Part shown: piece after piece, positions 8,980 through 59,435 of the stretch
How the letters are laid out: each line of letters starts with the position of its first letter
Numbering within the stretch: the first letter of the stretch is position 1
IMG/VR virus record: IMGVR_UViG_3300033149_002577
DNA length: 62,207 nt
Origin: a virus
Strand: one strand, 5' to 3'
The notes under the pieces: model-generated
The model's input: the letters and a program-made list of their open reading frames with translations, nothing else
What the model was told of the DNA's origin: nothing
The model's database searches: none
Position numbers and translations under genes: made by a program

Positions 8980-9709
8980 AATCGAATGGGCCACGGAGAC
9001 CTGGAACCCGGTCACCGGCTGCTCAAAGACGAGCCCGGGATGTGACAATTGCTACGCCGAGAGGATGCCAAAGCGCCTCGCGGGTCGCTGTGGGTACCCT
9101 GCAGTGCCGAATAGTTTCGATGTCACGTTGCATCCAAACCGCCTCGAGCAACCGTTGAAATGGAAGCCATCTCGCCGGGTGTTCGTCTGCTCGATGGGTG
9201 ATCTCTTTCATGAGGATGTTCCCTTCAAATACATCACTGAGATTTTTAGCGTGATGGCGCGATGTCCTCATCACGTTTTCCAGGTGCTGACCAAGCGGCC
9301 TGCCCGGGCTCTTGAGTGGTTTGGTTATCCGAGTGATTTCAACCTTGAGCCTCTCCCTAACATCTGGTTTGGCGTCACAACTGAGGACCAACAGCGAGCA
9401 GATGAGCGCGTTCCGCTGCTCCTTCAGATCCCGGCTGCCGTTCGATTTGTTTCGGCGGAGCCGATGCTTGGCCCGGTTGACATGCGTCCATTGCACGACC
9501 ATTGGAGCGAGGGCTCCGGACGACTCGTGGACTGGGTGATCTGTGGTGCCGAAACCGGTCCAGGAACTCGCCCCATGGATCTGGAATGGGCTCGGAACCT
9601 TCGTGATCAATGCGCCTCAGCGGGCGTCCCTTTCTTTTTCAAAAAGGACAGTAGCGGAGGCCGAACGATCGACGGCGATACCCACGAAGCTTGCCCCGTC
9701 TTGAAATAA
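8969..9709 (+). CDS. Phage Gp37/Gp68 family protein (DUF5131)
   Basis: IEWATETWNPVTGCSKTSPGCDNCYAE, VSAEPMLGP and WVICGAETGPG match the family signature. The start is ATG 8969, inside track ORF 8879. Confidence 0.8.
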   Translation: MPTKIEWATETWNPVTGCSKTSPGCDNCYAERMPKRLAGRCGYPAVPNSFDVTLHPNRLEQPLKWKPSRRVFVCSMGDLFHEDVPFKYITEIFSVMARCPHHVFQVLTKRPARALEWFGYPSDFNLEPLPNIWFGVTTEDQQRADERVPLLLQIPAAVRFVSAEPMLGPVDMRPLHDHWSEGSGRLVDWVICGAETGPGTRPMDLEWARNLRDQCASAGVPFFFKKDSSGGRTIDGDTHEACPVLK

Positions 9710-9729
9710 TCCGCGTCAAAACGTACACT
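9701..9729 (+). promoter_or_regulatory. Promoter TTGAAA-17-TACACT with an operator copy (9710-9725) in the spacer
   Basis: -35 TTGAAA at 9701-9706 and -10 TACACT at 9724-9729, then 6 nt to ATG 9736 with no SD. TCCGCGTCAAAACGTA matches the 16-bp palindrome consensus at 13 of 16 positions. Confidence 0.6.
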
Positions 9730-9735
9730 CAAGAC

Positions 9736-10032
9736 ATGCCTCGAAAATCAGACAGAACATCGAAGGAAGGCCACGAGCTTTACAGGACATTGAAAGACAA
9801 CATCACCTCTCGGCTGTCTTGCCTCGGCGTTTCAGCCTATATCGCAAGCCGTGAATCAGGCCACAATCGAACATGGATCAGCGATTCTTTTAGGCGTTCT
9901 TCTGGCGTTTCGTTGGTTTGGTTGGCCGATATATCGAAGGTGCTGAACGTTCCGCCGGGTGACCTTCTCAAGCCTCAAGAGTTGTTTGCTCCCGGCAAAT
10001 ACCCAATCCCGGAGTGGCTGGAGCAATCTTAA
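9736..10032 (+). CDS. XRE-type helix-turn-helix regulator (candidate operator-binding protein)
   Basis: HTH-like segment VSAYIASRESGHNRTWISDSF...VSLVWLADISKVLNVPPGDLL. An operator-containing promoter lies directly upstream. Confidence 0.6.
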   Translation: MPRKSDRTSKEGHELYRTLKDNITSRLSCLGVSAYIASRESGHNRTWISDSFRRSSGVSLVWLADISKVLNVPPGDLLKPQELFAPGKYPIPEWLEQS

Positions 10033-10054
10033 GAGTCTGTGCTATCCTCGCCCT

Positions 10055-10792
10055 ATGTCGAAGCTCGTAACCGTCTCAGGAATTCTCACCGTCGAAGCTG
10101 ACACCGTTGTCACGGGGCAAGGTGTCGATGCTCGGCAAATCGCTCTCGGGCCTGGTAACTCGGCTCTGGGCGCGAAATATTACCAGGCTGTAACGAGCAC
10201 TCAGATCGATCTTGCAACCGCTGGCCTCGTCGGTGCGGCCTTCGAGGACCTCGACGTTATCGACGAGCTCACGAGGGTTGATCTTCTCTACATCAGAACA
10301 ACCGCCGAGATCGCAGTCAGGCTCTATGCCGTTCCCGCTTCGGCTGTTGCGGTGGCAGGGGTATTCCCGACCACATTCGCAGGTGCCGAAACACTGATCA
10401 CGACCATCGACGGGACGGCTGTAACCACGACGTTCCTCATCGGTGACCAGTCAGCCGCTCAGTGCGTCGCGCGCATCAATGCAGCGATGGCGCTGACAGG
10501 GATTGCAACGCCTCGGGCGAACGTTGTAGGTGGCCAGGTTTGTCTCGATGGGGTCTCCACTGCGGTGGGTTCCTCTGGCGATGGGCAGTTCGCTGCCTTC
10601 ACAGGGACGGGCGCCGCTCAACTCGGTCTCGATGCCGGAAGTTCACCGACGATCACGAACGCGCAGGGCCAAGACATCCATGTGAGCGGGCTTGCGGTTT
10701 TGGAGTTCCCGTCGACTGGTGATAATGTGCTCACGAACGTATCTATTAGCGGTGTTGCTACTGTTGACGTGCTCGCCGCAGGTCGATCCTAA
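10055..10792 (+). CDS. Hypothetical structural protein (245 aa)
   Basis: ATG 10055. Ala/Thr/Gly-rich. Contains a ~80-aa module (ITTIDG..TTTF...VARINAAM...G..L.G) also present in the sheath candidate. Confidence 0.55.
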   Translation: MSKLVTVSGILTVEADTVVTGQGVDARQIALGPGNSALGAKYYQAVTSTQIDLATAGLVGAAFEDLDVIDELTRVDLLYIRTTAEIAVRLYAVPASAVAVAGVFPTTFAGAETLITTIDGTAVTTTFLIGDQSAAQCVARINAAMALTGIATPRANVVGGQVCLDGVSTAVGSSGDGQFAAFTGTGAAQLGLDAGSSPTITNAQGQDIHVSGLAVLEFPSTGDNVLTNVSISGVATVDVLAAGRS

Positions 10793-10815
10793 AAAGGATC
10801 AAGGAGAAAAACACA

Positions 10816-11475: not shown

Positions 11476-11499
11476 ATCAATAACCAAAAAGGAGACACC

Positions 11500-13734: not shown

Positions 13735-13761
13735 ACATTTCGCCTGTGCTATGCTCACGGC

Positions 13762-14325
13762 ATGGTGAAGAGAAAACTACCTAGGGCAAAACCTAAACAA
13801 CCCGTCAGCGTCAATGATCCATCTGATTTCGGAGACCTCGGCCCAATAGAGGCCGCTCCTGACGACGTTCGTCACGTAAAAACAGCCGAGGTTATCGCTG
13901 ATGACCACGGCGATTCAGAGCCGAAAGAGCAACCGAAACCGAAGAAGATCACTCTGAAACCGGACGATATCCTTGCGGCGATTCTCAACGGTGATGCCTC
14001 AGGACTCCCGATGAGAAAGGGCTTCTCGCCCGTGCTTCGAGGAAGTGAAATTGTCTTAGCCGGAGAGGGCTCTAAGATCACCGTTGCCCTGGCTGGCTAT
14101 GCCGTGAACTGTGAACTCGTCTCAGAGGTCCGGTTGGTAGGCTGGAGCGTTCAAGGGGCGGCCGTAGAACTCGTCGATAGATGGCGCTTGATGAATAACG
14201 TTAAGATGGCGGTCGGTGGTCGGGTCATCGAACTCAAGAAAAACAAGGAATTTTTCGGTCACCAGATCAACGTCGAAAGGCTGAAACAGGCCGGCGGGAT
14301 CGTGATCCCAATAGGTCAGAAGTAA
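13762..14325 (+). CDS. Hypothetical head-associated protein (187 aa)
   Basis: ORF in the head block with a basic, Pro-rich N-terminus. No motif recognised. Confidence 0.5.
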   Translation: MVKRKLPRAKPKQPVSVNDPSDFGDLGPIEAAPDDVRHVKTAEVIADDHGDSEPKEQPKPKKITLKPDDILAAILNGDASGLPMRKGFSPVLRGSEIVLAGEGSKITVALAGYAVNCELVSEVRLVGWSVQGAAVELVDRWRLMNNVKMAVGGRVIELKKNKEFFGHQINVERLKQAGGIVIPIGQK

Positions 14326-14331
14326 TCCACG

Positions 14332-14727: not shown

Positions 14728-14736
14728 GGAACGAAA

Positions 14737-28580: not shown

Positions 28581-29249
28581 ATGACTATAAAACTAGAGAC
28601 TGGATTGGTTCTCGGGAAACTCACGATCACAGAAGACCTTCAGCGCAGAAGTCGCCATGGCGATAGGGTCTGGAGTGCAATCTGTGAATGCGGAATCATC
28701 ATAGAGGATACGGCATGCCACTTAAGAAAAAGAACATCATGTGGCTCACATATATGCAGAAAAATCAGAAGTGACACAAATGGCGGCTATGCACCAAACG
28801 ATGCAAGCAAGAGGATTCCTGAATATGGAATTTGGAGACTAATAAAACAGCGCTGTTGCAACAAAAACAATCCCGCGTTCGCTGATTATGGTGGTCGTGG
28901 GATATTCGTTTGTGATGAATGGATTCACAATTTCAAAGCTTTCATCGATGACATGGGAAGAAGACCAACGAAAGACCACCAAATAGAAAGAATCGATAAT
29001 TATGGACCGTATTCAAAACAAAACTGCAAATGGGCTACTCGTTTCGAGCAAGGATGTAACAAGCGAAATAATATATGGATGGAATGCAATGGAAAACGAC
29101 TGATTTTGGCCGAATGGTCAAGACAAACAGGGTTGCCTGAGAAAATGCTTCAGAATAGAAAGAGGGCTGGATGGTCTGATAATCGAGCATTGACTACGAT
29201 ACCAAAATCTGATCATCGTCGAAAAAAAATCATTTTGAATTTGCCGTAA
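28581..29249 (+). CDS. Free-standing homing-endonuclease-like / AP2-type DNA-binding protein
   Basis: Motif YGIWRLIKQRCCNKNNPAFADYGGRGIFVCDEW..F..FIDDMGRRP...IERIDNYGPYSKQNCKWATRFEQ.CNKRNN recurs in phage HNH/AP2-associated genes. The gene is visibly AT-richer than its neighbours. Confidence 0.5.
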   Translation: MTIKLETGLVLGKLTITEDLQRRSRHGDRVWSAICECGIIIEDTACHLRKRTSCGSHICRKIRSDTNGGYAPNDASKRIPEYGIWRLIKQRCCNKNNPAFADYGGRGIFVCDEWIHNFKAFIDDMGRRPTKDHQIERIDNYGPYSKQNCKWATRFEQGCNKRNNIWMECNGKRLILAEWSRQTGLPEKMLQNRKRAGWSDNRALTTIPKSDHRRKKIILNLP

Positions 29250-29306
29250 TTCTTGTCTTTTCTAGTCTTGTCGAATCGGTCCCTGTAAGTTCATGTCTAG
29301 TCCTGC

Positions 29307-29344
29307 TTGGTGCCCTACGATCACGAAAGCAACCGCAGGGCTTC
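29307..29344 (-). ncRNA. Hairpin element A1 (13-bp stem, tetraloop)
   Basis: 29312-29324 pairs with 29329-29341 around GAAA (29325-29328). Four A-C/C-A positions become G-U wobbles in the minus sense. Confidence 0.65.
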
Positions 29345-29453
29345 TTTTCTCATCCCGTCGTGTCGAATCCTGTCGAGTCGCATCTTGTCCAGTCCCGTCT
29401 CGTCCCGTTAAATCGTGTCTGGTCCGGCCCCATCGCATCTCGTCTAATCATGC

Positions 29454-29488
29454 TTGGCACCCCACCGCAACGAAAGCCACGGGGCATC
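29454..29488 (-). ncRNA. Hairpin element A2 (degenerate copy)
   Basis: Same TTGGCAC...CGAAAG...GGGGC layout, but the lower stem is weaker. Confidence 0.45.
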
Positions 29489-29558
29489 GGGTCTTGTCTC
29501 GTCCAGTCACGTCGCGTCACGCCTGGTCTCGTCCGGTCTTGTCAGGTCCCGTCAAGCC

Positions 29559-29598
29559 TGGCACCCCTGAACCCCGAAAGAGGTCTAAGGGTATCGAG
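29559..29598 (-). ncRNA. Hairpin element A3
   Basis: 29563-29575 pairs with 29580-29592 around GAAA. Three C-A/A-C positions and one G-T position. Confidence 0.55.
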
Positions 29599-29670
29599 TC
29601 TTTTCTTGTCCCGTCTCATCACGTCGTGTCTCGTCCGGTCCCGTCACGTCCCGTCACGTCTCGTCAGGTA

Positions 29671-29708
29671 TTGGAGCCCAACCAAAGTTTCACGTTTGGC
29701 CGGGCCTC
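29671..29708 (-). ncRNA. Hairpin element A4 (type II loop)
   Basis: GCCC-aa-CCAAA ... TTTGG-cc-GGGC with loop GTTTCACG. The flanks TTGGAGCCC / GGGCCTCTTGTC are shared with type I. Confidence 0.55.
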
Positions 29709-29785
29709 TTGTCGCGTCTTGTCCGGTCTTGTCAGATCCTGTCACGTCTAATCAAGTCCGATCTCGGCTCGTCCGTTCATGTAAA

Positions 29786-30325
29786 TCATGAAAGTAGCAG
29801 CCACTCAGCGAGCAACCCTTTATCAGCGGACTCCCCCTTGTCCGCAAGTTTTTGAATCGTTTTCGGCTTCGACGCCGCTTGAATTAGATGTGCATGAACC
29901 GCCAGAGAATTCGCCCGTGATCGTTCACCGGTGGAGAGCTCGCTCATGTCAGCGCTTGCAACCACGACGCTCGCAGTCTTCGCCCTTCGGCCGGCCCTGC
30001 ATATCTCGGCCTCTGTCCTCTCAAGTCGCTCTCTGGCGTCGAGGCACTTGATACGGCCTTCTTTCCTAACCCGTTGCCAGAGCACTAGATGCTTCCTCAA
30101 AACGTGCTTGATGGCCGAGTTGAGCATTCCGTACCCCTGGCCGCTCGGGTCGACCTTTTGAAGATCCCCTGGCCAGTCCTCATCGACAATGAAGTCGCCA
30201 GGTGTCCCGACCTCGAGGACGCGGATAAACCGCGAAGTCTTCGGCCCGGAATTCCCGTAGACCGGGCCTTCGTAACCATCCTCTGAAATCTCATTTAGTC
30301 TTTCGACTACTTCCTCTTGGCTCAT
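29786..30325 (-). CDS. Orphan protein P179 (179 aa), embedded between arrays A and B
   Basis: ATG preceded by AGAAAGGAAAGAAA. Acidic N-terminal half and an Arg/Lys-rich helical C-terminal half (RKHLVLWQRVRKEGRIKCLDARERLERTEAEICRAGRRAK). No family recognised. Confidence 0.7.
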   Translation of the reverse strand: MSQEEVVERLNEISEDGYEGPVYGNSGPKTSRFIRVLEVGTPGDFIVDEDWPGDLQKVDPSGQGYGMLNSAIKHVLRKHLVLWQRVRKEGRIKCLDARERLERTEAEICRAGRRAKTASVVVASADMSELSTGERSRANSLAVHAHLIQAASKPKTIQKLADKGESADKGLLAEWLLLS

Positions 30326-30413
30326 TTTCTTTCCTTTCTAGGCAAATGATTTTCGTGTCGGGTCAGTTCTAATCGTGTCCTGTCAAGTCAGGTCTTGTCA
30401 TGTCGTGTCGCGT

Positions 30414-30451
30414 TTGGTGCTCCCTGCGACCGAAAGATCACGGGGAGCTTC
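30414..30451 (-). ncRNA. Hairpin element B1
   Basis: 30419-30431 pairs with 30436-30448 around GAAA. The stem sequence differs from B3 and C1 but pairing is retained (covariation). Confidence 0.65.
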
Positions 30452-30519
30452 TTGTCTCGCCGGGTCCGGTTTCGTCGTGTCGAATCATGTCGCATCGTGT
30501 CTCGTCGGGTCATGTCGAT

Positions 30520-30558
30520 TTCGGAGCCCGACCAAGTTTTCAAGCTTGACCGGGCCTC
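30520..30558 (-). ncRNA. Hairpin element B2 (type II loop)
   Basis: GCCCG-ac-CAAG ... CTTG-ac-CGGGC. There is a compensatory change relative to A4 (CCAAA/TTTGG versus CCAAG/CTTGa). Confidence 0.55.
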
Positions 30559-30632
30559 TTGTCTCGTCTTGTCGGGTCCGGTCTTGTCGCGTCTCGTCTC
30601 GTCCGGTCGCGTCTTGTCATGTCGCATCGTGC

Positions 30633-30670
30633 TTGGAGCCCACGGCCACCGAAAGGCAACCGTGGGCCTC
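30633..30670 (-). ncRNA. Hairpin element B3
   Basis: GCCCACGG (30638-30645) pairs with CCGTGGGC (30660-30667). The three inner C-A/C-A/A-C positions all become G-U in the minus sense, giving an uninterrupted 13-bp helix. Confidence 0.75.
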
Positions 30671-30749
30671 TTGTCTTGTCGTGTCTCGTCCTGTCGAGTC
30701 ACGTCTTGTCAAGTCCTGTCGCGCCGGGTCGTGCCGTGTCGCGTCCATG

Positions 30750-31376
30750 TTATTCAATGATCTCAAATTTAAAGTTCTCAACCCGGAAGATCCCATGATC
30801 GCCGCCATTGGTCCCGGGCCTATTACAGCCGATTCCGACTTGGTAGCCGGCAGTTTCCAGGGTTTCGCTGATCATCTCAGGGTGCTCGATGATATCGGCA
30901 TCGACGACCATGAACCCGATCGCGATATTCCACGGCGGATCGATCTCAGGGAAACATCGAGGCACCCTCTTTGAGCCGCCTCTTGTCCCGTCGCTTGGTA
31001 CGGAAATCGTTCGACCGATCACGTCATCGATATGAACCGGCTCAAGCTTCTTACTTTCATCGTTGATGGCGTAGACCAACGTTTCCGGCGCTGTCGGGTC
31101 GGTCATGATCCCGCTCTTGAATCGTGCGGTGAAAGTCGACCTGTTCTTACCGGGGACCTTGTCGTTTCGGAGCTTCGAGGCCTGCTCCATGCCGAGCTTG
31201 AAGGCGATCGGCGGAACCAAAACCAGGTCGTCTTTGTTGATGTGACACCGTTCTCGCCAGCACCTCTTATCCTGCGCCTCTGCCGATTCCTTTCCCTTTC
31301 GCGGGCTCTGAAACATGCGCCCGAATGTCAGTGTGGTTAGTCCGATAATGTCCGCGCTAAAGATTCCTCTTCTCAT
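30750..31376 (-). CDS. Orphan protein P208 (208 aa), embedded between arrays B and C
   Basis: ATG preceded by CGAAAGGAAAGAGCAAG. Coding-like composition. The C-terminal region contains VVDADIIEHPE and NGGDHGIFRV. No family recognised. Confidence 0.7.
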   Translation of the reverse strand: MRRGIFSADIIGLTTLTFGRMFQSPRKGKESAEAQDKRCWRERCHINKDDLVLVPPIAFKLGMEQASKLRNDKVPGKNRSTFTARFKSGIMTDPTAPETLVYAINDESKKLEPVHIDDVIGRTISVPSDGTRGGSKRVPRCFPEIDPPWNIAIGFMVVDADIIEHPEMISETLETAGYQVGIGCNRPGTNGGDHGIFRVENFKFEIIE

Positions 31377-31461
31377 CTTGCTCTTTCCTTTCGTTAGTTA
31401 AAAAACTTCAATTCGCGTCCTGTCAGATCCGGTGCCGTCCTGTCACGTCTAGTCGGGTCAG

Positions 31462-31500
31462 TTTGGAGCCCACAACCACCGAAAGATAGCTGTGGGCCTC
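31462..31500 (-). ncRNA. Hairpin element C1
   Basis: 31468-31480 pairs with 31485-31497 around GAAA. Three A-C/C-A positions become G-U in the minus sense. Confidence 0.75.
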
Positions 31501-31587
31501 GTGTCGTGTCGCGTCACGTCCGGTCGGTCCGAATCTGATCTTGTCAAGTCACGTCGGGTCCTGTCAGGTCCCGTCTGGTCCCGTCTG

Positions 31588-31627
31588 GTTTGGAGCCCTC
31601 GCCGACCGAAAGATCAGCGGAGGCCTC
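31588..31627 (-). ncRNA. Hairpin element C2
   Basis: 31595-31607 pairs with 31612-31624 around GAAA. Three C-A positions and one T-G position. Confidence 0.65.
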
Positions 31628-31723
31628 TTGTCTTGTCGTGTCTCGTCCTGTCTCGTCGTGTCTCGTCACGTCGATTCTTTCCAAAAATGGTGGCCCTCAG
31701 CGGTCAACTTCGAGGTTGTTGGC

Positions 31724-31788
31724 TGCGACACCGTCCCGCTTCGGACCATAAAAATGTTGTTTTGTCTCCTCTTAGTTTCCGGTGTCGC
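31724..31788 (-). promoter_or_regulatory. 9-bp inverted repeat at the predicted 5' end of the cassette transcript
   Basis: GCGACACCG (31724-31732) and CGGTGTCGC (31780-31788), separated by 47 nt, lie immediately downstream of the leftward -10. Confidence 0.4.
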
Positions 31789-31795
31789 AATTCTG

Positions 31796-31824
31796 ACTAT
31801 ACGCGTTGACGCGTACCGTAGCAA
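31796..31824 (-). promoter_or_regulatory. Leftward promoter of the cassette: TTGCTA-17-TATAGT with the perfect operator palindrome (31800-31815) in the spacer
   Basis: Minus-strand -35 is the reverse complement of 31819-31824. The -10 is the reverse complement of 31796-31801. The 16-bp TACGCGTTGACGCGTA occupies the spacer. Confidence 0.6.
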
Positions 31825-31836: not shown

Positions 31837-31848
31837 CTGTGATATCCT
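31837..31848 (+). promoter_or_regulatory. Extended -10 box CTGTGATATCCT, 6 nt upstream of ATG 31855
   Basis: The identical 12-mer with identical spacing occurs before terS (59424-59435). TGaTATCCT fits the TGnTATAAT class. No SD. Confidence 0.5.
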
Positions 31849-37281: not shown

Positions 37282-37301
37282 GCCGTGCTATCCTCTGAGC
37301 C

Positions 37302-40300
37302 GTGGCCAAACTATCACAAGATGATCTCCTAGATGTTCTCCGGGCTTCCGCCGACGACGCCTATATCGAGCCTCTTGAAACCGTCGACGATGGAGCCGGA
37401 TTTGACCTCCATCGCGCCATCGCGGCGATATTTGCTCGAGCATCAGAGGCCGTCGATACCAACACGCAGGCGATGTATCTCTACCCTCACTCGGAGCAGA
37501 CGTCGGCGCCGGCAGGTGGCGGTGTTCAAGCTTCAGGAAACCTGCTGATCGTCAGAACAGCACCCACCGATGGCGAGATCATTCTGACTGAAGGCGAGCT
37601 CCTCGTCGTGCTTCTCACGACTCTTGATGCCGAGATAATCGTCGAGGCCGAACTCGAGGTCGCTACCAGCACCACGTTTTCTGCGGGCGTCGGTGGGCCT
37701 CTAAGCGTTCCAGTCCGTGCGGTTCGAGTCGGATACCACGGAAATCTACCGACCTCAGAGAGCCGATACGCCATCGCTAAACAGCTCACGACGATGACGT
37801 TGACCGGCATGACCTCGACGATCGCGAACTACGTCACCGACACCGGGCTCAACGACACTTTTGAAGAGGCCTCGGTAGGTGCTTGGCTGCGGTTCACTTC
37901 CGGCCCCAACGTCGGGACAGGCCCGAGGCTCATCCTCTCTTTCGATGCCTCAACCTCGACGGTGATCGTTGACGGCTCGGCCCTCGTGGCCAGCGTTGTC
38001 AACGACGGCGAGATCGTGGATTTGAGCACCATCGGTTTTGCTCCGGTGATCGACAGCGAGCTCTCAAGCGGCGTTTCCCCCATGCTCGACATGCTCGGCG
38101 CCGGCCGTGACATGGGCCGAGAGCCAACCGAAACTGACGACGAGTATCGTGAGCGCCTTCGATACCTCCCTGACATTGTCTCCCCCAACGCGCTCTATCG
38201 GGCCGCCTCCCGTATCCTGACGCCGTTGAGCATCAGGTTCCGCCTGCTTGAAGCTCGAAGCACTGACGATTTTACCGGCGGCGCCTGGGACGTCATGGCC
38301 TACGATGACCCAGCATTTTACAACTGGGTTCTCGGTCGTCAAAACTTCTTCCAAGGCGACGCCTTTGAATATCGCGGTTTCTACCTCGTGATCGAACGTC
38401 AATGGTACGGCGACTTCGGAGCCCCGTTCGACTCATGGCCAGCGGCATCGCCTAATCATCCGTCGAATGCCTGGGATTGGATGGCCTATGACGGCTATCC
38501 CCTTGGTTTCGCGAACGACCTGGACAGAACCATCGTCGAAGTTGAAAAAGCCCGCATGGGCGGCGTCCCTTGGCTCTTGGTCCTCGCTGCGTCATTTGGC
38601 AGTTACGGTGCCTCAGCCGGCTCATCGACAGTATTGGCGTTATCGCCCGTTTCTTCGTTCGGCGCCTCAGCCGGCACCTCAACCGTCATCGCTGTGGGAG
38701 AATCAACATCTGAGGCCGATGGCATATCAGATGGAACCTCCACATCCACCGCCGTCGGGGAGTCGACATTCGAAGCTGCCGGATTATCTGATGGTATTTC
38801 GACGGTTACTGGCATTGCCACTTCGGTGGCCGTGGGTGCGTCAGACGGCACCTCGACAGCAATCGCCGAATCTGCATTCATAATGTCGAAATCTATCGAC
38901 GTATGGGAAAGCTCAAGAATCGATTTCGACAACAATCTCGGCTTTGATTATGACGAAGCCTTCTCGTTTTCTTTCTGGTTTCGTCCAAAAACTGAACGAG
39001 GAAGCGGTCTTCGTGAATTGCTTGAGAAATGGGACAGCGGATCAACTCGCGGATACCAACTGAACTGGGACCAGGGAACAGGAAACGTTCAATTCCTCTT
39101 GAGCAACGGGCCAAGCAACCAGATCGATGTTGACTTCACCGACGCCGCGCTTGGAAATTCAGATTCTTGGCACCATATCGCGGTCTCTTATGATGGCTCA
39201 GAGGCGGCCTCCGGCATCAGTATTTACATTGACAACTCATCAAGATCACTCGCGACAAACGCAGATACCTTGAGCGCAACGACTTTGAACACCGAAGATC
39301 TCGCGTTTTCAAATGTCTTGTCAGGATGCGTCGGTCGATTCTGCAACGGTGCTTTTTGGTCAAAGGAAATTAGCTCGGTCGAGGTGACATCGCTTTACAA
39401 CAGTGCCCTGCCAACATCAATCTCCGACAATGAGTCATGGTGGAAACTCGGCGAGGGCGACGCACCCGGTTCCATCCTCGACTCAAGCGGAAATGGGATA
39501 ACAGGGACAGGCGGCGGCCATGATGGCCTCTTCGTCGACGATTGCCCAGGTTACGATTATTCAAATTCTCACGGTCTCAGATTCGATGGAAACGCCTATG
39601 TCGACATAGGCGATCATTTCGACCTGGCAAGTTCATCGGCCGATTTCTCTGGCTCTATTTGGTTCAAGACAACGACGAAAACCTCAACACGTATGACGTT
39701 CTTCTCAAAAGCAGAAGACGCTGATCCGGAGCAAGTATCTTACACGGCACACATGTACACATTCGGTGGGTATGATTATTTCAGGGTTGCTTTACATGCT
39801 GATATATATGACAGAGTTGGGCGATATCGAGCGCCAGAGGGAACATACACAGATGGGCAATGGCATCATTTCGCATGCTCGTATGAGAACGAATCATATA
39901 CTGAGTTTACTGTTCGCATGTTCCTCGATGGCCAAGAGGTAACGGTCGCAGAAGACCAAAATGACAGCTTTGAATTTGTGTATTATGGGAACACTAGCCC
40001 ATTGCTTATTGGCGCAATTGATGAAGAATCTTCGATAAGCGAATATTTCTACGGCGAACTCAAAGAATTCTATTTTATTATGAGCAACGTAGCCGCCAAT
40101 AACTTGACCCTTGCCAACGCACGAAAATATTACGGTCACGGAATACCACCTGAAAATGTCTATCCTGGAATGAGCCCCCATCTCTACTTCCGCCTCGGGA
40201 CGGGAGACACCTACGACGAGGCAACCACGCGCGGTCGGGCATACGACTACGACGGCACCATGAACGGAATGTCCGACACCGACCTCCTCGACGACGCCAT

Positions 40301-47766: not shown

Positions 47767-48003
47767 CTATTCGTCCTCGTCCTCGTAATCCTCTGGGATG
47801 CAGTGATCCTCCCCAAACAACGACACAAGGACCTCCTGTTGACGCTCTGTGAGCTCGCGCGGGCAGTTGCCGTCCTTGTCCTTCTCGCGTTGGATGCACG
47901 AGTCACAGAGCCTCCGATACTGATTGATCTTGGTCAGCGGTGGGTGGCTACCGTGGGGCAACCAACCGCACTCGGAGCAGCTCCCTATGATCTTCTGAGG
48001 CAT
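47767..48003 (-). CDS. Small zinc-finger protein with an acidic tail (78 aa)
   Basis: CSEC...CDSC pattern. C-terminus EDYEDEDE. Confidence 0.5.
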   Translation of the reverse strand: MPQKIIGSCSECGWLPHGSHPPLTKINQYRRLCDSCIQREKDKDGNCPRELTERQQEVLVSLFGEDHCIPEDYEDEDE

Positions 48004-48503
48004 TACAGTATTTCGAGTACTTCACGGCGCGAGCAGACAAGCTTGTCCTGGTCGAAAATTATCCGTCCCGAGCATGCTACTCGCGTTACAACGCCATCCT
48101 GCCCGCCGTATTTTTTAGCGTCGTCGAGTTCTAGGGACGCATGAAATCCAGAATTGCAGATGGATATTTTGCCGTCATACTCGAGGACATCCCCTGGTTT
48201 AATAAATTTTCCGTTCATGTCATGCCGCAACGTCCCATTCGTTGTCAGTACATGCCACGCCTTTATGGGTGAGTTGTGAGCAAGCTCTATTTCGCCGTAG
48301 CCGTTGCCGTTGCCGTAGCCATTGCCGTTGCCGTTGCCGTAGCCGGAGCCGTCGCCGTAGCCGTAGCCGTAGCCGTTGCCGTTGCCGTAGCCATTGCCGT
48401 AGCCGTAGCCGTTGCCGTAGCCGGAGCCGTTGCCGTAGCCGTTGCCGTTGCCGTAGCCGGAGCCGTTGCCGTAGCCGGAGCCGTTGCCGTTATTCAACCC
48501 CAT
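48003..48503 (-). CDS. Protein with an N-terminal (G-Y-G-N-G)n low-complexity region and a conserved C-terminal globular domain
   Basis: MGLNNGNGSGYGNGSGYGNGNGYGNG... (~65 aa) followed by W.VLTTNGTLRHD..GKFIKPGDVLEYDG.ISICNSGFHAS, a domain type seen in other phage proteins (DUF7666-like in my recollection). Confidence 0.6.
   Translation of the reverse strand: MGLNNGNGSGYGNGSGYGNGNGYGNGSGYGNGYGYGNGYGNGNGYGYGYGDGSGYGNGNGNGYGNGNGYGEIELAHNSPIKAWHVLTTNGTLRHDMNGKFIKPGDVLEYDGKISICNSGFHASLELDDAKKYGGQDGVVTRVACSGRIIFDQDKLVCSRREVLEIL
48295..48490 (-). repeat. Hexanucleotide-based GCCGTA/GCCGTT repeat encoding the GYGNG tract
   Basis: Near-perfect short tandem repeats. They also open spurious + strand ORFs (48242..48553 and 48276..48509). 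Confidence 0.85.
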
Positions 48504-48790
48504 GGCTGATCTCGCCAAGCACGCACGGCGTCGTCGGTACATTCGGCGAATGAATGCACGTCAATGGCCGTAAGGGATTTCACAACAGGAGAGACCCTAC
48601 ATGATTTCGATGGACCCCTGGCCGCCAGACCCAAGACCCCACCTATATCGCTTGACCAATAGACGCACATCTGGGCATCATCCAGCGTTACACGTGAGAG
48701 ATCATCGAGATCTTTCAGTGCAACGAGACCCATGAAAACGCCTTTTTTATCGGTAAAAATCACAACTGCTTTTTTCTTTGCCTTAGCCAT
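48494..48790 (-). CDS. Hypothetical protein (98 aa)
   Basis: ATG 48790 (MAKAKKKAVV...) with an AAGGAG RBS. Lies inside track ORF 48494..48829. Confidence 0.55.
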   Translation of the reverse strand: MAKAKKKAVVIFTDKKGVFMGLVALKDLDDLSRVTLDDAQMCVYWSSDIGGVLGLAARGPSKSCRVSPVVKSLTAIDVHSFAECTDDAVRAWRDQPWG

Positions 48791-48800: not shown

Positions 48801-49124
48801 TTATTCTTTCGTGATCTCCCATTCGTCATCGATCTTCGCGATAATCATTTCAGGGTACCCCCACGTCTTCGCCTTCCTCGGTCCCCATCGATTCCTTCGG
48901 TCCATGATGGCACCACATTCGCAATAACGGTTGAGCGTGAGAGCATCGCATGCCGGGCAATACCAGGGCCTTCTATCCCCGTGTTTTTCACATACCCCAT
49001 AGTGCGTTTTGACCGGCCAAGTCCCGTGGTCGCCGACCTGGAGCGATTTCTCGACCTTGCAGGTTCCGCGCTTCTGCTCCCGGCTAAACTCGTGGTAGAA
49101 CTTGCATGATATGCAGCTTTTCAC
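48801..49124 (-). CDS. Cys-rich putative zinc-binding protein (107 aa)
   Basis: Multiple CxxC pairs (CISC, CPAC, CEC). Confidence 0.55.
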   Translation of the reverse strand: MKSCISCKFYHEFSREQKRGTCKVEKSLQVGDHGTWPVKTHYGVCEKHGDRRPWYCPACDALTLNRYCECGAIMDRRNRWGPRKAKTWGYPEMIIAKIDDEWEITKE

Positions 49125-49522
49125 GGCGATTCCTTTTCAAGCTTATGCATCGCCGCGGTCAGTACGTGCCTCGCTTCACCGACTTCTTTCGCCATTCCTT
49201 CGAGGCTGAATCTGAGCTTGTCGTCTTCAGCCCTTTTTGATTTCGTGATCAATGCCTTGAATTTATTTTGATACCGCTGAACCCATCCGCGTAACTTGCT
49301 TTTCAGAAAGCTCATGGACTCCTCGCGGAGCACAGCCCTCATCTCGTTGCTGATGCCGTCGAATGAGCATCGATGGCCGTCGTGAATTGCCGTTACGATG
49401 AGGCTGAGGTTGTCACCTCGCATCAGCGTCAATAGCCGTGCCCTAAGCTCATCCTCGAACCCTACGATTGATCTCGGTGTGAGTTCGCTGGTGTTAACGC
49501 AAAATGTCATACATGCGGTCAT
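49121..49522 (-). CDS. Hypothetical protein, first gene of the leftward early operon (133 aa)
   Basis: RBS GAAAGGAG. Lies downstream of the leftward operator/promoter. Confidence 0.6.
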   Translation of the reverse strand: MTACMTFCVNTSELTPRSIVGFEDELRARLLTLMRGDNLSLIVTAIHDGHRCSFDGISNEMRAVLREESMSFLKSKLRGWVQRYQNKFKALITKSKRAEDDKLRFSLEGMAKEVGEARHVLTAAMHKLEKESP

Positions 49523-49544: not shown

Positions 49545-49574
49545 ACCATACGCGTCAACGCGTACAGAAATCAA
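49545..49574 (-). promoter_or_regulatory. Leftward early promoter TTGATT-18-TATGGT with the perfect operator palindrome (49549-49564)
   Basis: -35 is the reverse complement of 49569-49574. -10 is the reverse complement of 49545-49550. TACGCGTCAACGCGTA lies in the spacer. Confidence 0.55.
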
Positions 49575-49619
49575 CAAAAAAAGATGTATAGGTCTTGACA
49601 CGGAGGCCGGTTTCGATCA

Positions 49620-49701
49620 TGCATAAGGAAGTGGGTAACCCTTCCAGCTATCCACCAAAATCACAAACGCCACGAGCCTGTAGCCCTCGTGGCGTTTTTT
49701 T
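49620..49701 (+). ncRNA. Candidate small RNA ending at an orphan intrinsic terminator
   Basis: A TTGACA box lies upstream at 49595-49600, outside this interval. 5' hairpin GGAAG-GG-GTAA-CC-CTTCC at 49627-49645. Terminator at 49667-49701. No + strand CDS lies upstream. The -10 is unclear. Confidence 0.3.
49667..49701 (+). terminator. Rho-independent terminator
   Basis: ACGCCACGAG (49667-49676) pairs with CTCGTGGCGT (49686-49695), followed by a T7 run. Confidence 0.75.
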
Positions 49702-50352
49702 GTGCCCCAAATAAATATCTTGCTGAAAATAGAATCCTGAAGCATGATCGATCTACTCGACGGCTACACTCGCCGAGCTGGAAGAAATTTGAAACACCGA
49801 GATGAAATATCCCCGATATGGCCAATACGCTTGGCTGGCGGCGGACCATCGTCTTTTTACGGACGAGGTGCCATGGCCTAATCCATAGAGCGGTGGCCGA
49901 CGCCCTCCCAACACCTGAGGAAGCGTGACACCCCAAAGTACAAGGCTGCCGGAGGAGATGATCCCTGCCAGCCTGGAAATGGTGGCCCACCCGCTATTTC
50001 GTCCCGAGCCTGAGGGATAGGAAATAAAGGCGGCTGTGATTCGGCGGTATGGCATGTCAGAGCCCGGAATTTGAGGGGAGGGGAGGGCTTAGCTCTCTAA
50101 TTCTCAGTGCATTAAAACCATATTCTCTTGCCCTCTATGCTTTAAAAAATCCCTATCCACATCACGACGCTTGAGCTTTAGCTCAAGACGAGGAGCACGC
50201 CTCGGGCTCCGAAGCTTGTAGCGCGTAGCGCGGCTAAATCAGGGGTAGAGATTCTCTCTTCTATATAAGAATTTAACTATTCGTTTACCCTCAATGCTTT
50301 TAAAAAGCCCGCAAAAGACTCTCTTCTATATGGAAAAAATGAAGAAAAAAGC

Positions 50353-50380
50353 TTGCCCTGTACGCGTCAAAGCGTATACC
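50353..50380 (+). promoter_or_regulatory. Rightward early promoter TTGCCC-16-TATACC with an operator copy (50361-50376)
   Basis: TACGCGTCAAAGCGTA matches the consensus at 15 of 16 positions. The -10 begins at the terminal TA of the palindrome, as at the other sites. Confidence 0.5.
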
Positions 50381-50403: not shown

Positions 50404-50766
50404 ATGACGACGGAGAAATCAACCAATTCGACAATCTTAAGCAGAATCCAGTCCCTAGCGGTCGATCGGGCGAAGGCCAAAGGTGAACTCAAGGAGGCGT
50501 CCAGTGAGCGCCTCAAGGCTGCCAAGGAGGCTCAAGCTGAGCTTGATGATGCCATCGAGGGTTCAAACGGCTGTGAGCCTGGCGATGTTCCGAAGTTCCT
50601 GGCGGTTATTCAGGACAAGTTCGCTTCGAAGCGTCACGTCGTAAATGAAACTCAAGAGGCCTATCGAGCAGCCAAGAGCCGTTTCGATGAGGCCGACGAG
50701 GATTTCTTTTCGGCCATCGAAGACTCGAAACAGGGTTCTTTATTCGATGAGGAGGGGTCATCATGA
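50404..50766 (+). CDS. Hypothetical coiled-coil protein, first gene of the rightward early operon
   Basis: ATG 50404 is preceded by GAAAGGAAAGG. It lies inside track ORF 50353. Confidence 0.55.
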   Translation: MTTEKSTNSTILSRIQSLAVDRAKAKGELKEASSERLKAAKEAQAELDDAIEGSNGCEPGDVPKFLAVIQDKFASKRHVVNETQEAYRAAKSRFDEADEDFFSAIEDSKQGSLFDEEGSS

Positions 50767-52197: not shown

Positions 52198-52530
52198 ATG
52201 ATGAAAAACGATAGATTCACAATTCGAGACGTCCGAAGGAAGATCGCGGCCGGAGAGCGACGAGCCCGATACGTCGAAAGCCAATTCGGGCAAGGTGCGC
52301 CGTCATCTGAAACCTATGCACGCGAGGAGCTTCTCTTCATCGAGGCGGCGATCCTCACGCTGAAATACTACGAGCTCTCGCTTAGCCCGGAGACGTCGAT
52401 CCCTCTCGCCCTCCGAGAACTCTTGGAGGAGATGGACAGGGTTGACATGCCAGGGCAGAATCCGGCGCATGACAAGCTTCAGAGGGCGTATATCAAGGCC
52501 CGGAGAATCCTCCGGGAATGGAGCGAATAA
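52198..52530 (+). CDS. Hypothetical protein (110 aa)
   Basis: ORF with coding-like composition. No motif recognised. Confidence 0.5.
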   Translation: MMKNDRFTIRDVRRKIAAGERRARYVESQFGQGAPSSETYAREELLFIEAAILTLKYYELSLSPETSIPLALRELLEEMDRVDMPGQNPAHDKLQRAYIKARRILREWSE

Positions 52531-52787
52531 TGGGCAGCAAAAGCAGAATGAACAGTCGGCGACGAAGCTATCGAAATCAGCAGATGGAGCGCCTAAGAGA
52601 TAACCTTGCCGAGTCATGGTGGATCATCGGTGCCATGCTTCAGCAGGCCGGAGGAAAGGCGGTGCTTGATCCGAAAGCGTTCGATTTGAAGGACGGGGAG
52701 CCCGAGATTAAAAGCCGAATCGAGGCCGACGGAATCATTCATTTAAGCTTGATAGGGTCCGCGTCAACGCGTACAATTGAGGAGTAA
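52530..52787 (+). CDS. Hypothetical protein (85 aa)
   Basis: ATG 52530 overlaps the upstream stop (TAATGG). Confidence 0.45.
   Translation: MGSKSRMNSRRRSYRNQQMERLRDNLAESWWIIGAMLQQAGGKAVLDPKAFDLKDGEPEIKSRIEADGIIHLSLIGSASTRTIEE
52749..52777 (+). promoter_or_regulatory. Promoter TTGATA-17-TACAAT with an operator copy (52758-52773) in the spacer
   Basis: Near-consensus sigma70 hexamers with an exact 17-nt spacer. TCCGCGTCAACGCGTA matches the consensus at 15 of 16 positions. Confidence 0.65.
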
Positions 52788-52814: not shown

Positions 52815-53591
52815 ATGAATTTCGAGGAATATCGAAAGATTAATGCGATGAACTGGAGTTCGCTGAAAGATATGAATGTTTCAGCGCGACTCTATAAATG
52901 GCGGATCGATCACCCGAGACCTGAAACGCCGGCTCTGTCGATGGGCTCGGCGCTTCACACCGCGATTCTCGAGCCCGAAGAGTTTCTTCAGCGATACGTC
53001 ACCAGGCCGGCCGGCTTGGACTTCCGGACGAAGGCCGGCAAGGAATGGAAGGCCAGCGTTAGGGCCGACCAGGCCATTCTTACGGCCGATCAGGTTGATA
53101 CGATCTGGCAGTATGTCAAGGCGGTTTCGGAGCACGAGGAGGCATCCAGGCTGCTCGAGGGAACGCGGCGAGAGGAGACGGTCGCATGGACCATCGACAG
53201 CTTGGCTTGTAAAGGGCGAGTCGATGCAATCGGGCCGGACAAGATCATTGATCTCAAGTCGACGAGATCGCTCGAATGGTTCATGCGGGACGCCGTAAAG
53301 ATGCTTTATCATGGTCAATTGGCCTGGTATCGAGACGGGTGCTTTTTTTCAAAGCTGATACCAGAAGACTCTGAGGTTTATATCATCGCGACGGAGACGG
53401 CTGAGCCCTACGACGTCGGTGTTTTTCGGCTCGGACCGAGCGTGCTTAGGACGGGGCGAGAACTCTACACATCGCTCCTCGGCTATTGGCGCGAGTGCGA
53501 GCGATCAAATATTTGGCTCGGGCAGTACGCAGGGATTCAACCTTACGAGCTTCCACCATGGGCCGAGACCGGCGACGAGGAGGGATTCTAA
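52815..53591 (+). CDS. PD-(D/E)XK recombination exonuclease (RecB/YqaJ/Cas4-like)
   Basis: GRVDAIGPDKIIDLKST (D...DxK) and YHGQLAWY (QxxxY) motifs. Paired with a downstream annealase. Confidence 0.75.
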   Translation: MNFEEYRKINAMNWSSLKDMNVSARLYKWRIDHPRPETPALSMGSALHTAILEPEEFLQRYVTRPAGLDFRTKAGKEWKASVRADQAILTADQVDTIWQYVKAVSEHEEASRLLEGTRREETVAWTIDSLACKGRVDAIGPDKIIDLKSTRSLEWFMRDAVKMLYHGQLAWYRDGCFFSKLIPEDSEVYIIATETAEPYDVGVFRLGPSVLRTGRELYTSLLGYWRECERSNIWLGQYAGIQPYELPPWAETGDEEGF

Positions 53592-55819: not shown

Positions 55820-55848
55820 GACCCGCAAGATTAAAGGGAGAGTGGGTG

Positions 55849-57672: not shown

Positions 57673-58120
57673 TTCAACAGTGATCACATTTGAGGTTCCA
57701 GGGCCGGCCGTTGGAAAAAAGCTCAAGGCGTTTATCATCGGAAAGTACGCCAAGATCATCAACGAGCCGAAGAAAACCAAGCCCTACATGGACCTCGTTC
57801 GGACTATTGCCAAGCTCAACGCACCTCTGGAGCCGTGGCTTGGAGCGGTGGCGATAAGTATTGAATATATCATCGAGCCAACCAAGGGATGGAAGGCCGA
57901 GAAGAAGGCTCTCGCCCTATCCGGAAAGCTCTATGCGACGGTCAAGCCCGATGGGGACAACGTCTCTAAATCCGTCTGCGATGCCCTGTCTCAGGTGATT
58001 TACAAGGACGACTGTCAGATCGTGCAATACGTCATCACGAAGCGCTACGGAGCGGTGGCGAAGACCGTGGTCACCATCGAAGCGCTCGAGCATATCCCGA
58101 CGCAGCAGAAATTGATTTGA
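57665..58120 (+). CDS. rusA: RusA-family Holliday junction resolvase
   Basis: KPDGDNVSKSVCDALSQVIYKDDCQIV is the RusA catalytic signature. Confidence 0.85.
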   Translation: MSDSTVITFEVPGPAVGKKLKAFIIGKYAKIINEPKKTKPYMDLVRTIAKLNAPLEPWLGAVAISIEYIIEPTKGWKAEKKALALSGKLYATVKPDGDNVSKSVCDALSQVIYKDDCQIVQYVITKRYGAVAKTVVTIEALEHIPTQQKLI

Positions 58121-58136
58121 AAGGAAAGAAAGAGCC

Positions 58137-58328
58137 ATGATGAAAGAAAAGCAGATCGATATTTGCATCGAAGAGGCCGAGCGATTCATCAAGCGTGCGA
58201 ACGATTTGAAGCGACGTTTGAAAAATGATGACTATGCGTTTCTTGGGTCGGCAGAAGGCGGAGCCCTCAAACGGGCATCGATGGACCTCACCCGTGAGCT
58301 CGCGACGATGAGGAGCACGAAGAGATGA
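58137..58328 (+). CDS. Hypothetical protein (63 aa)
   Basis: ATG preceded by GAAAGGAAAGAAAGAG. Confidence 0.5.
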   Translation: MMKEKQIDICIEEAERFIKRANDLKRRLKNDDYAFLGSAEGGALKRASMDLTRELATMRSTKR

Positions 58329-58522
58329 AAGTCAAAGGAAAGTGGGGCGCTCAATGCAGCGTCGAAGGGTGTCAGAAGAAGGTTGGATACCGCTGTGACT
58401 ACAAGGCGGAGGACAGCGAGATCATCGAGGTGTGCGACCAGATGATGTGCTCGAAACACGCGAAGCTCGTCCGGTTCAACGTGCACTATTGCCCGGAGCA
58501 TGCCGAGGGAGAAACACGATGA
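58325..58522 (+). CDS. Small Cys/His-rich protein (65 aa)
   Basis: Multiple Cys and His residues (CSVEGC, CDQMMCSKH, HYCPEH). Confidence 0.5.
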   Translation: MKVKGKWGAQCSVEGCQKKVGYRCDYKAEDSEIIEVCDQMMCSKHAKLVRFNVHYCPEHAEGETR

Positions 58523-58701
58523 CAAAGGGCGTAAAACGGATTCCGAGTTCATACAGGAAAGACGATGAGTCGATGGGCGATCGGGCCTTCCTGAGGCTCC
58601 TCACGGAGCGGATGAAAGAGCACGGCATACCGACCGGGAGCTGGAAGAACGAGATCAACTGTGATGCTCGGCGTTACGAGATCGAGAAGGGGGAGTTGTG
58701 A
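58519..58701 (+). CDS. Hypothetical protein (60 aa)
   Basis: ATG 58519 overlaps the upstream stop (ATGA). Confidence 0.4.
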   Translation: MTKGVKRIPSSYRKDDESMGDRAFLRLLTERMKEHGIPTGSWKNEINCDARRYEIEKGEL

Positions 58702-58979
58702 CCGGTTCGATTCGGAAAGCGTTGCTCATGCTGGCCGCTCGATGGTTCTTCGACCCCAAGGACCTTCGAGCACTATCAGACGATGATCTTGAGGCCGGAC
58801 TGAACCTATACCCGTCGATGCAAAAGGCGATCAATGAGACGTCAGAGGCCTTGGGGCTGATATTCGAGACAGAGCTTGAAGAACGGGTGGGCCGGGCGAT
58901 CTCGAAAATCCGGAGCGCGGAAGGGATCGACCCGGACCAGATTGACCAGATTTTGGGAGTGGAAAGGGTGGATTTATGA
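58698..58979 (+). CDS. Hypothetical protein (93 aa)
   Basis: ORF in a coupled series with a non-ATG start as in the track. Confidence 0.4.
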   Translation: MTGSIRKALLMLAARWFFDPKDLRALSDDDLEAGLNLYPSMQKAINETSEALGLIFETELEERVGRAISKIRSAEGIDPDQIDQILGVERVDL

Positions 58980-59395
58980 CTATTGACCCGAGAATGATCG
59001 TTTTCCATTATGCCGATGGGGAGGTTCTGTTTAGCTGCAAGCATTGTAGCCACGACATTATTTTTGCCAAGGCGGATGCAATGCATGTCAGTTATTCGGA
59101 AAAAGGCCCGCCACCTTGCCCGAAGTGCGACCCGGTAGACTTTGGGGAGTGGAGTGGGAGAAGGAGCAATATGACATGGATGACAGAGATAAGCGACGAA
59201 GGAGAGCGTGCTCTCCGGACGATTGAAGAAGCCTTGAGGCCATATATCAGAAAAATGAATGGCAAGGTTCGATCGATAACATTAGACGAACCAATCAGTT
59301 TTATCATTGTCGATCTTGAGCTTGAAATTCCACTACCGGATTGCTTGACTGGGCCTGACACAACACGCGCGAAGTCACGCGCGCCCGTCGAATAA
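58976..59395 (+). CDS. Hypothetical protein with a zinc ribbon (139 aa)
   Basis: CKHC...CPKC. Last gene before the packaging operon. Confidence 0.5.
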   Translation: MTIDPRMIVFHYADGEVLFSCKHCSHDIIFAKADAMHVSYSEKGPPPCPKCDPVDFGEWSGRRSNMTWMTEISDEGERALRTIEEALRPYIRKMNGKVRSITLDEPISFIIVDLELEIPLPDCLTGPDTTRAKSRAPVE

Positions 59396-59401
59396 ACTTT
59401 A

Positions 59402-59435
59402 TCCGTTTTGACGCGTAGTCCTCCTGTGATATCCT
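59402..59435 (+). promoter_or_regulatory. Packaging-operon promoter: operator half-site, TTGACG-16-(TGa)TATCCT, then 6 nt to ATG 59442
   Basis: TTGACGCGTA (59408-59417) is the right half of the palindrome. CTGTGATATCCT (59424-59435) is identical to 31837-31848. No SD. Confidence 0.55.

Follow-up and report, generated by a model that had tools for sequence, protein, structure and literature searches.

A 16-bp palindrome in the spacers of six promoters of an uncultivated tailed phage, the putative operator of a small Cro/C1-type protein

Controller (C) proteins of restriction-modification systems are dimeric helix-turn-helix (HTH) proteins of the XRE type, about 80-100 amino acids (aa) in length, which autoregulate through palindromic boxes bound at their own promoter and serve as timers. 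One small repressor acting on many scattered operators that overlap promoters and fall into high- and low-affinity classes is known from C1 of phage P1 and from KorA of RK2. At Pant of phage P22, the operator of Arc/Mnt lies within the core promoter, the repressor competes with RNA polymerase, and the system forms a regulatory island among late genes. In Thermus phage P23-45, transcription of the structural genes starts at extended -10 promoters, which do not require a -35 box, and that of earlier genes at other promoters (PMC4124052). The stretch of DNA considered here, the IMG/VR virus record IMGVR_UViG_3300033149_002577 with its full length of 62,207 nucleotides (the window), contains a 16-bp palindrome, TACGCGT-CA/TG-ACGCGTA, which lies between the -35 and -10 boxes of six promoters, one of them in front of the gene of a 98-aa HTH protein, gp9736. 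We lean towards the explanation that the palindrome is the operator of a phage-encoded dimeric HTH repressor, most probably gp9736, which would autoregulate its own gene and control a regulon of early and accessory units.

Two perfect copies of the palindrome, two copies with one mismatch and three with three mismatches are present in the window. All six copies listed in the original prediction were recovered with position and sequence when the genome was re-read, and the genome-wide pattern search proposed there added a further copy, operator G, which was absent from the earlier list; extended to IMG/VR, a scan for the exact palindrome yielded three single, unrelated matches, which were taken as chance. 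The candidate regulator gene, and the operators with the promoters in which they are embedded, are as follows (the seventh copy, site F, is described below together with the terS promoter).

gp9736, 9736-10032, plus strand: 98-aa Cro/C1-type HTH protein, candidate operator-binding autoregulator
Operator A, 49549-49564: perfect palindrome, TACGCGTCAACGCGTA
Promoter A, 49545-49574, minus strand: TTGATT-18-TATGGT, leftward
Operator B, 50361-50376: TACGCGTCAAAGCGTA, one mismatch
Promoter B, 50353-50380, plus strand: TTGCCC-16-TATACC, or TTGCCC-18-TACCTT; the first gene starts at 50404
Operator C, 52758-52773: TCCGCGTCAACGCGTA, one mismatch
Promoter C, 52749-52777, plus strand: TTGATA-17-TACAAT, upstream of the genes of a PDDEXK exonuclease (52815-53591) and ERF
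Operator D, 9710-9725: TCCGCGTCAAAACGTA, three mismatches
Promoter D, 9701-9729, plus strand: TTGAAA-17-TACACT, the -10 box ending 6 nt before the ATG at 9736
Operator E, 31800-31815: perfect palindrome, TACGCGTTGACGCGTA
Promoter E, 31796-31824, minus strand: TTGCTA-17-TATAGT, leftward into a cassette of GACNN repeats and hairpins
Operator G, 6028-6043: TACGTTTTGCCGCGTA, three mismatches
Promoter G, 6019-6047, plus strand: TTTCCG-17-TATACT, followed by a GGAAAG-rich leader as in the other units

Since the first 114 bases of the window recur exactly at its end (1-114 = 62094-62207), the genome is complete, circular or permuted, and comprises 62,093 bp. In this unique sequence, four copies with at most one mismatch are observed where base composition predicts 0.011. 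For copies with three mismatches, base composition predicts about 2.5 in the whole genome and 0.21 in its non-coding part (8.3% of the DNA); three are observed, all of them non-coding. A shuffle test gave an expectation of 2.1 copies with up to three mismatches, as compared to the seven observed. These counts confirm that the palindrome is real and occurs far above chance. The MluI-type hexamer ACGCGT is present in each operator half; the genome has 12 ACGCGT sites, seven inside operator copies and five elsewhere (11201, 11402, 13628, 19609, and 55722).

The claim that the palindrome occupies the spacer of six promoters stands for A to E, whereas the copy in front of terS overlaps a -35 box; the sixth spacer site is operator G. 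At A to E, as had been claimed for five sites, and also at G, the -10 box begins with the TA in which the palindrome ends, which places the element at about -27 to -12. It is the -10 box that sets this register; the spacers are 16-18 nt in length, and the distance from the element to the -35 box differs by 2-4 nt. The promoters themselves appear to be of the sigma70-type -35/-10 class. At A, D, E and G, a TAnnnT -10 box and a TTGnnn -35 box (TTTCCG in the case of G) can be read from the sequence at a distance of 17-18 nt; promoter C, which is located within the 3' end of the open reading frame (ORF) 52518-52787, matches the consensus at 10 of 12 positions in a sigma70 consensus scan; the -10 box of promoter B either lacks the final T (TATACC) or is the alternative TACCTT at 18 nt. 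All seven copies have CA or TG as the central dinucleotide of the palindrome. Relative to transcription, this centre takes either orientation, A and G being inverted with respect to B-E. The occurrence of both orientations argues for a symmetric binder, and not for an element that is recognised by polymerase or a sigma factor or that is directional and was simply duplicated; taken together with the fixed register and the dyad symmetry, it points to a dimeric DNA-binding protein. The half-site centres are 9 bp apart, a spacing that suits Cro/C1-type dimers. That an occupied operator would occlude RNA polymerase, as originally proposed, is thus supported, although not proven, by the common register of six copies, the preserved symmetry, and the two orientations of the centre.

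A protein of the expected kind is encoded directly behind promoter D. An exhaustive HMMER search of 1.84 billion representative proteins found 16 relatives of gp9736, all of them small proteins. One of 15 family members matches HTH_31 (E 2e-5), and a search of the PDB with the family profile retrieved XRE-type structures only (E 9e-4 to 0.5); the gp9736 sequence matches C.BclI with an E value of 1. AlphaFold2, when run on gp9736 alone, gave an unusable model (predicted local distance difference test score, pLDDT, 46), so that the alignment of 15 sequences was needed, with which it predicted a single-domain five-helix bundle at pLDDT 92.5 (helices 10-30, 34-40, 47-53, 60-70, and 74-77). Foldseek superimposed this model on 3vk0, 2b5a, 1y7y, 2cro and 3zkc with probabilities of 0.98-1.00 and a root-mean-square deviation of about 2 Å over 60-70 residues. 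Its neighbours in the PDB are Neisseria NHTF, C.BclI, C.AhdI, C.Esp1396I, the N-terminal domain of lambda cI, 434 Cro, P22 c2, and SinR, all of which are dimeric operator binders. On the basis of the model, gp9736 can confidently be described as a five-helix HTH protein of the Cro/C1 type, with helix 2-turn-helix 3 as the predicted DNA-reading unit. Profile searches of nearly all ORFs of the window revealed no DNA-binding domain besides that of gp9736. Since the -10 box of promoter D lies 6 nt from the ATG, the gp9736 mRNA is predicted to be leaderless, like the cI mRNA of lambda transcribed from PRM.

Orthologues of gp9736 are encoded on contigs of four other uncultivated phages, in each case directly upstream of the orthologue of a late 245-aa gene. 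All four promoters consist of a TTGAnn -35 box, a spacer of 16-18 nt, and a TAnnnT -10 box that ends 6-7 nt before a conserved start of the MPRK type, which again predicts leaderless mRNAs, and at all four an operator-like 16-mer ends in the TA of the -10 box, in the same register as in the window.

Contig L139: HTH protein 59% identical to gp9736; 16-mer GACGCTTTGACGCGTA, two mismatches, flipped relative to operator D
Contig L140: HTH protein 43% identical; 16-mer AACGCGGCAAAGCATA
Contig L143: HTH protein 38% identical; 16-mer AACGCTTCATGGCGTA
Contig L142: HTH protein 40% identical; 16-mer AACGACTTTCAGCGTA, preceded by CGTTGACCATCAACG over the -35 box

The recognition helix of the L139 protein is nearly identical to that of gp9736 (HNGTWISD versus HNRTWISD), and L139 retains the ACGCGTA half-site. 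L142 belongs to a phage whose terL product is 69% identical to that of the window and of which about 33 kb are available (contigs L018, L007, and L142). In this phage, the composite element recurs at a second promoter (L007:5803-5829) as CGTTGACGCTCAACGACTTTTGTCGTA, with a perfect ACGAC-N4-GTCGT, within a TTGACG-17-TAGGGT promoter ahead of a 356-aa gene; the diverged palindromes repeated there are ACGAC-N4-GTCGT and CGTTGA-N3-TCAACG. No copy of the TACGCGT-type palindrome of the window was found in the approximately 33 kb. The absence of the TACGCGT type together with the presence of a diverged palindrome suggests that the motif travels and changes with the HTH gene, as a comparison of genomes would typically show for an autoregulated repressor. 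The main early divergent promoter of the same phage (L018:3098-3241) lacks a spacer palindrome, indicating that conservation of the regulon's membership does not extend this far. Upstream of the HTH orthologue on L140, at 2095-2225 (the same sequence occurs in L141 at 300-430), there are four direct repeats of approximately TTTCGGGACACTT, which may be sites for another regulator. In sum, the Cro/C1 fold of the model and the operator-like 16-mers at the own promoters of four orthologues support, but do not prove, the proposal that gp9736 is an autoregulated operator-binding protein.

Several findings weigh against this assignment. The matches of gp9736 to Pfam HTH_26 (17.5 bits, E 0.005, under the 22-bit cutoff) and to the PHROG "transcriptional repressor" (E 0.007) are below threshold. 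Operator D, the repressor's own, is the poorest palindrome (four of seven arm pairs), and several of the 16-mers in the orthologues' own promoters are poor palindromes as well (3-4 of seven arm pairs), so that part of the conservation could be that of promoter sequence (ACG...GCG-TAnnnT) and not of an operator. The closest HTH orthologues are located on short contigs, and covariation of the regulon was compared at more than one promoter in one relative only. Besides, for most of the small early proteins, for example that of the first gene behind promoter A (133 aa), no fold could be detected, and the binder could be among them.

If gp9736 is the repressor, a dimer bound at -27 to -12 would cover T-12, A-11 and the face of the spacer, would, from its position between the -35 and -10 boxes, sequester the bases at which DNA melting begins, and would thereby block open complex formation. 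The operators are graded, with perfect sites at A and E, one mismatch at B and C, and three mismatches at D, G, and F, from which an ordered shut-off is predicted: rising levels of repressor would shut down A and E, then B and C, and would finally curb the repressor's own gene, as negative autoregulation. The structural operons would escape repression owing to operator-free, extended -10, leaderless promoters. From sequence we infer binding and repression, and likewise the order of shut-off and the early timing of the operator-bearing units. Lysogenic immunity seems less likely than a Cro-like early shut-off in a virulent phage, because no integrase, ParA or ParB was found among the scanned ORFs (profile searches of a very divergent genome, and hence weak evidence) and because a CI-type C-terminal oligomerisation domain or an S24 self-cleavage domain is absent from the 98-aa, single-domain gp9736.

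The alternative that survives best, although we regard it as unlikely, is that the operator is bound by another phage protein of undetected fold, such as the 133-aa product of 49121-49522, and that gp9736 regulates something else. The perfect operator A is located directly upstream of this 133-aa gene, in a cro-like position, and DNA-binding folds could hide among the early ORFs, most of which have no match in Pfam, PHROG, NCBIfam, or the PDB. However, none of these early ORFs shows a DNA-binding signature, acidic proteins are the first to be encoded behind promoters B and G, and the motif occurs at the promoter of gp9736 itself and at those of its orthologues.

Recruitment of a host transcription factor, which would couple the early promoters to host physiology, is distinctly improbable. 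Phages do borrow host repressors such as LexA, and the sole match in a genome collection is a 66-kb contig in a metagenome-assembled genome (MAG) of the Deltaproteobacteria. Against a host factor, the motif varies with the lineage of the phage HTH protein (the window and L139 versus the phage represented by L007), no matching operator sequence was found in the literature searched, and it is simpler to assume a phage HTH protein whose own promoter carries the motif.

It is just as improbable that there is no dedicated regulator. In that case, the 16-mer would have been left over from the duplication of promoters or would be intrinsic to the spacer of one promoter family, and the early shut-off would be due to a factor that disables -35/-10 promoters globally, in the manner of gp39. 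Common descent of the promoters is suggested by the shared flanks of B, C and E (an A-tract plus AAGCTTG) and by a B-like AAGCTTGCCC remnant at D, and the contrast between early -35/-10 and late extended -10 promoters is the one exploited by gp39 of phage P23-45 (PMC4124052). Yet four sites retain perfect or near-perfect dyad symmetry, the -35 distance varies whereas the register relative to the -10 box does not, and simple duplication of a directional promoter would not give the inverted centres of A and G.

Four further possibilities were rejected: a hairpin or terminator (the loop would be 2-4 nt, there is no adjoining T-run, and the sites are upstream of predicted starts), a pac or TerS-binding site (six copies are in promoter spacers far from terS), a site for a MerR-type activator (the spacers are 16-18 nt, not 19-20), and promoters for an extracytoplasmic function sigma factor with a CGTA-type -10 box (an AAC-type -35 box is missing, and the symmetry of the element does not fit).

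The genes behind promoters A, B and C are of DNA-metabolism types, B and C serving the rightward early operon for recombination and DNA metabolism; they code for a DnaQ-like exonuclease, a replication-initiator-like protein, the PDDEXK exonuclease, ERF, a methyltransferase-like protein, RusA, and SLT. The operon behind promoter A extends from 49522 to about 45275 and comprises the 133-aa first gene, DUF6948, DUF7666, and the DnaQ-like exonuclease gene. Within this leftward operon, the protein encoded by 48003-48542 (minus strand) combines a long GYGNGN-type repeat (48294-48490; about 11 copies of an 18-bp unit) with a DUF7666-like C-terminus. Promoter G precedes accessory genes at 6091-9709, namely a first gene for an acidic 109-aa protein (6091-6420), a gene for a 414-aa protein, small ORFs, and DUF5131. 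The gp9736 gene is adjoined by DUF5131 upstream and by head genes downstream, with no restriction endonuclease gene next to it.

The region of about 800 bp between the divergent promoters A and B (49600-50350) contains a bidirectional terminator with a 12-bp stem at 49665-49697, 33-bp direct repeats at 50121 and 50278 (157 bp apart), similar to promoter B minus its operator, and a 13-bp exact repeat (50254, 50319); its sole ORF is rich in S, G and R and implausible. The region may be an origin or a gene for a non-coding RNA.

Promoter E, with its perfect operator, is directed leftward into the following unit.

Cassette transcription unit, 29248-31795, minus strand: genes 30750-31376 (208 aa) and 29786-30325 (179 aa)

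Between 31672 and 29248, the minus strand of the cassette carries 13 GACNN arrays with about 140 pentamers, which occur nowhere else in the genome, interleaved with nine hairpins that show compensatory changes at 12 of 15 pairs. The 5-nt spacing of the GAC triplets recalls the RNA-binding sites of TRAP-type proteins. No match to the cassette was found in Rfam, Pfam, NCBIfam, the PDB or GenBank phages. The pattern (GACNN)x6-GAC occurs in at least 120 stretches of IMG/VR, at least 25 of which encode a homologue of the 208-aa protein, and in the loci compared the homologue is on the same strand as the arrays; contig L024 has the same order of gene, arrays, and terminator. The element is thus widespread in viral metagenomes, although undescribed. 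Immediately upstream of the cassette are a tape-measure-like gene and then an HNH endonuclease gene (28581-29249; PHROG E 4e-46), a neighbour which suggests that the region is a mobile insertion hotspot; Pfam searches of the tail-region ORFs gave no match. The proposed tie between the cassette and the early regulon is supported, short of proof, by the perfect operator in promoter E and the direction of that promoter. This would place the cassette under an early-type regulatory logic, and not with the surrounding tail genes, and would narrow the hypotheses on its function.

The copy before terS had been counted among the spacer sites, with its right half-site only. This does not hold, since its TTGACG serves as the -35 box in an extended -10 promoter of the late type.

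Site F, 59402-59417: TCCGTTTTGACGCGTA, three mismatches; overlaps the -35 box of the terS promoter, outside any spacer
terS promoter, 59408-59435, plus strand: TTGACG-16-(TG)TATCCT, the -10 box ending 6 nt before the ATG at 59442

In L011, the closest relative by terL (73%), TACGCTTTGACGCGGA is found at the same distance from GGTGCTATTGT upstream of terS. Site F is a conserved element, which may be a weak operator over the -35 box or the -35 box only.

The first gene of each structural operon is preceded by the motif cTGTG(A/C)TAT(C/T/G)CT, without a -35 box common to its copies, at the following positions.

225-236: 6 nt before the start at 243, where the gene after terL begins (tblastn)
10037-10048: 6 nt before the start at 10055
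13744-13755: 6 nt before the start at 13762
31837-31848: 6 nt before the start at 31855
37283-37294: 7 nt before the GTG at 37302
59424-59435: 6 nt before the start at 59442
Relatives: L007, about 9455; L010, about 9460 and 15385; L011, 5707; L139, 848; L140, 3094

In these five relatives the motif stands with the same spacing ahead of terS or other structural genes. The copies look like extended -10 promoters that would give leaderless mRNAs and that are conserved in the family. A mode in which the -10 box is adjacent to the ORF has been described for Deinococcus-Thermus (PMC12340547). Unlike this late class, the early genes have long, GGAAAG-rich Shine-Dalgarno leaders.

Tentatively, and with rather little confidence, the operator regulon may be seen as the early arm of a gene programme written in two languages shared by a whole uncultivated phage family, with the cassette, one of the two targets under the tightest control, as an RNA-based device for host takeover or anti-defence that is timed by the repressor. 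The early and accessory units would use -35/-10 promoters, GGAAAG-type leaders and the spacer operator, and an extended -10 box at exactly 6-7 nt from the start codon would head every structural operon, to be expressed from leaderless mRNA.

The phage itself is a tailed phage, as indicated by its terS and terL (59442-61525), portal, Mu-F-like, major-head-like, and tape-measure-like genes, and has no close cultured relative: terL is about 25% identical to terL of isolates, and a near-identity DNA search (megablast) with the early region matched no GenBank phage. Homologues of terL with 45-73% identity were found on metagenomic contigs only, several of them about 60 kb in length. Scans of IMG/VR and metagenome contigs with terL gave only relatives of at most 47% identity, none of which carries the palindrome. 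The 66-kb contig binned in the Deltaproteobacteria MAG is of phage size and has a terL of 49% identity; it does not establish the host. Word-indexed homologue searches returned gp9736 alone when gp9736 was the query, and a single 999-bp contig for a 197-aa early protein. In L010, a relative with 56% terL identity, an AT-rich non-coding stretch of 300 bp lies between the arms of a 19-bp inverted repeat, GGTATCACAGGGTGTGTAT (7340-7360 and 7668-7690), in an origin-like arrangement. The window also encodes at least one DNA methyltransferase, which is Dam-like (3423-4526). Segments 61554-61844 and 665-964 are paralogous, and each matches the gene that follows a terL-proximal 128-aa gene in relatives; both match one single gene there (L007 11948-12607, L011 6126-6611), which implies that a head-module gene has been duplicated or is split across the contig junction.

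For a phage lineage with hardly any annotatable genes and no cultured relatives, these data provide a regulatory map with six units that are predicted to be co-regulated, a candidate regulator, graded operators, and a separate late class, and a small orphan HTH family obtains its first candidate function. The mechanism, a repressor that would occlude its promoter, is textbook knowledge, and what is new is its occurrence in this lineage; more out of the ordinary are the leaderless late promoters and the GACNN cassette.

Among known systems, the Cro/CI switches of lambda, 434 and P22 share with the window a small Cro/C1-type HTH protein, palindromic operators of 14-18 bp over promoters, and graded affinities and autoregulation, which are predicted here. 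They differ in that their operators form OL/OR triplets, whereas those of the window are dispersed over six or seven promoters, with a single spacer operator each. Unlike lambdoid CI, gp9736 is a 98-aa protein without a C-terminal domain for oligomerisation or cleavage, no integrase or lysogeny module was found, and its gene is located at the boundary of accessory and structural genes and not in an immunity region. The controller proteins C.BclI, C.AhdI and C.Esp1396I are among the best structural and sequence neighbours of gp9736. In contrast to C proteins, the HTH gene of the window has no adjacent restriction endonuclease gene, its site is a single 16-bp spacer palindrome instead of C-boxes placed in tandem over the -35 box or upstream of it, the regulon appears to include several promoters, and the architecture favours repression only. 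The dispersed regulon of a single repressor on a mobile element resembles those of P1 C1 and RK2 KorA; however, P1 C1, which does not belong to the XRE proteins, has asymmetric 17-mers as operators, KorA is the regulator of a plasmid, and there is no homology to either. With P22 Arc/Mnt, the window has in common the operator inside the core promoter, but Arc and Mnt are ribbon-helix-helix proteins, while the candidate here is an HTH protein. The promoters of the structural genes resemble those of Thermus phage P23-45, extended -10 elements that do not depend on -35 boxes (PMC4124052), the late motif of the window being TGTG-n-TATCCT with no conserved -35 box; in P23-45, gp39 remodels sigma region 4, whereas the -35/-10 promoters of the window each carry a sequence-specific candidate operator.

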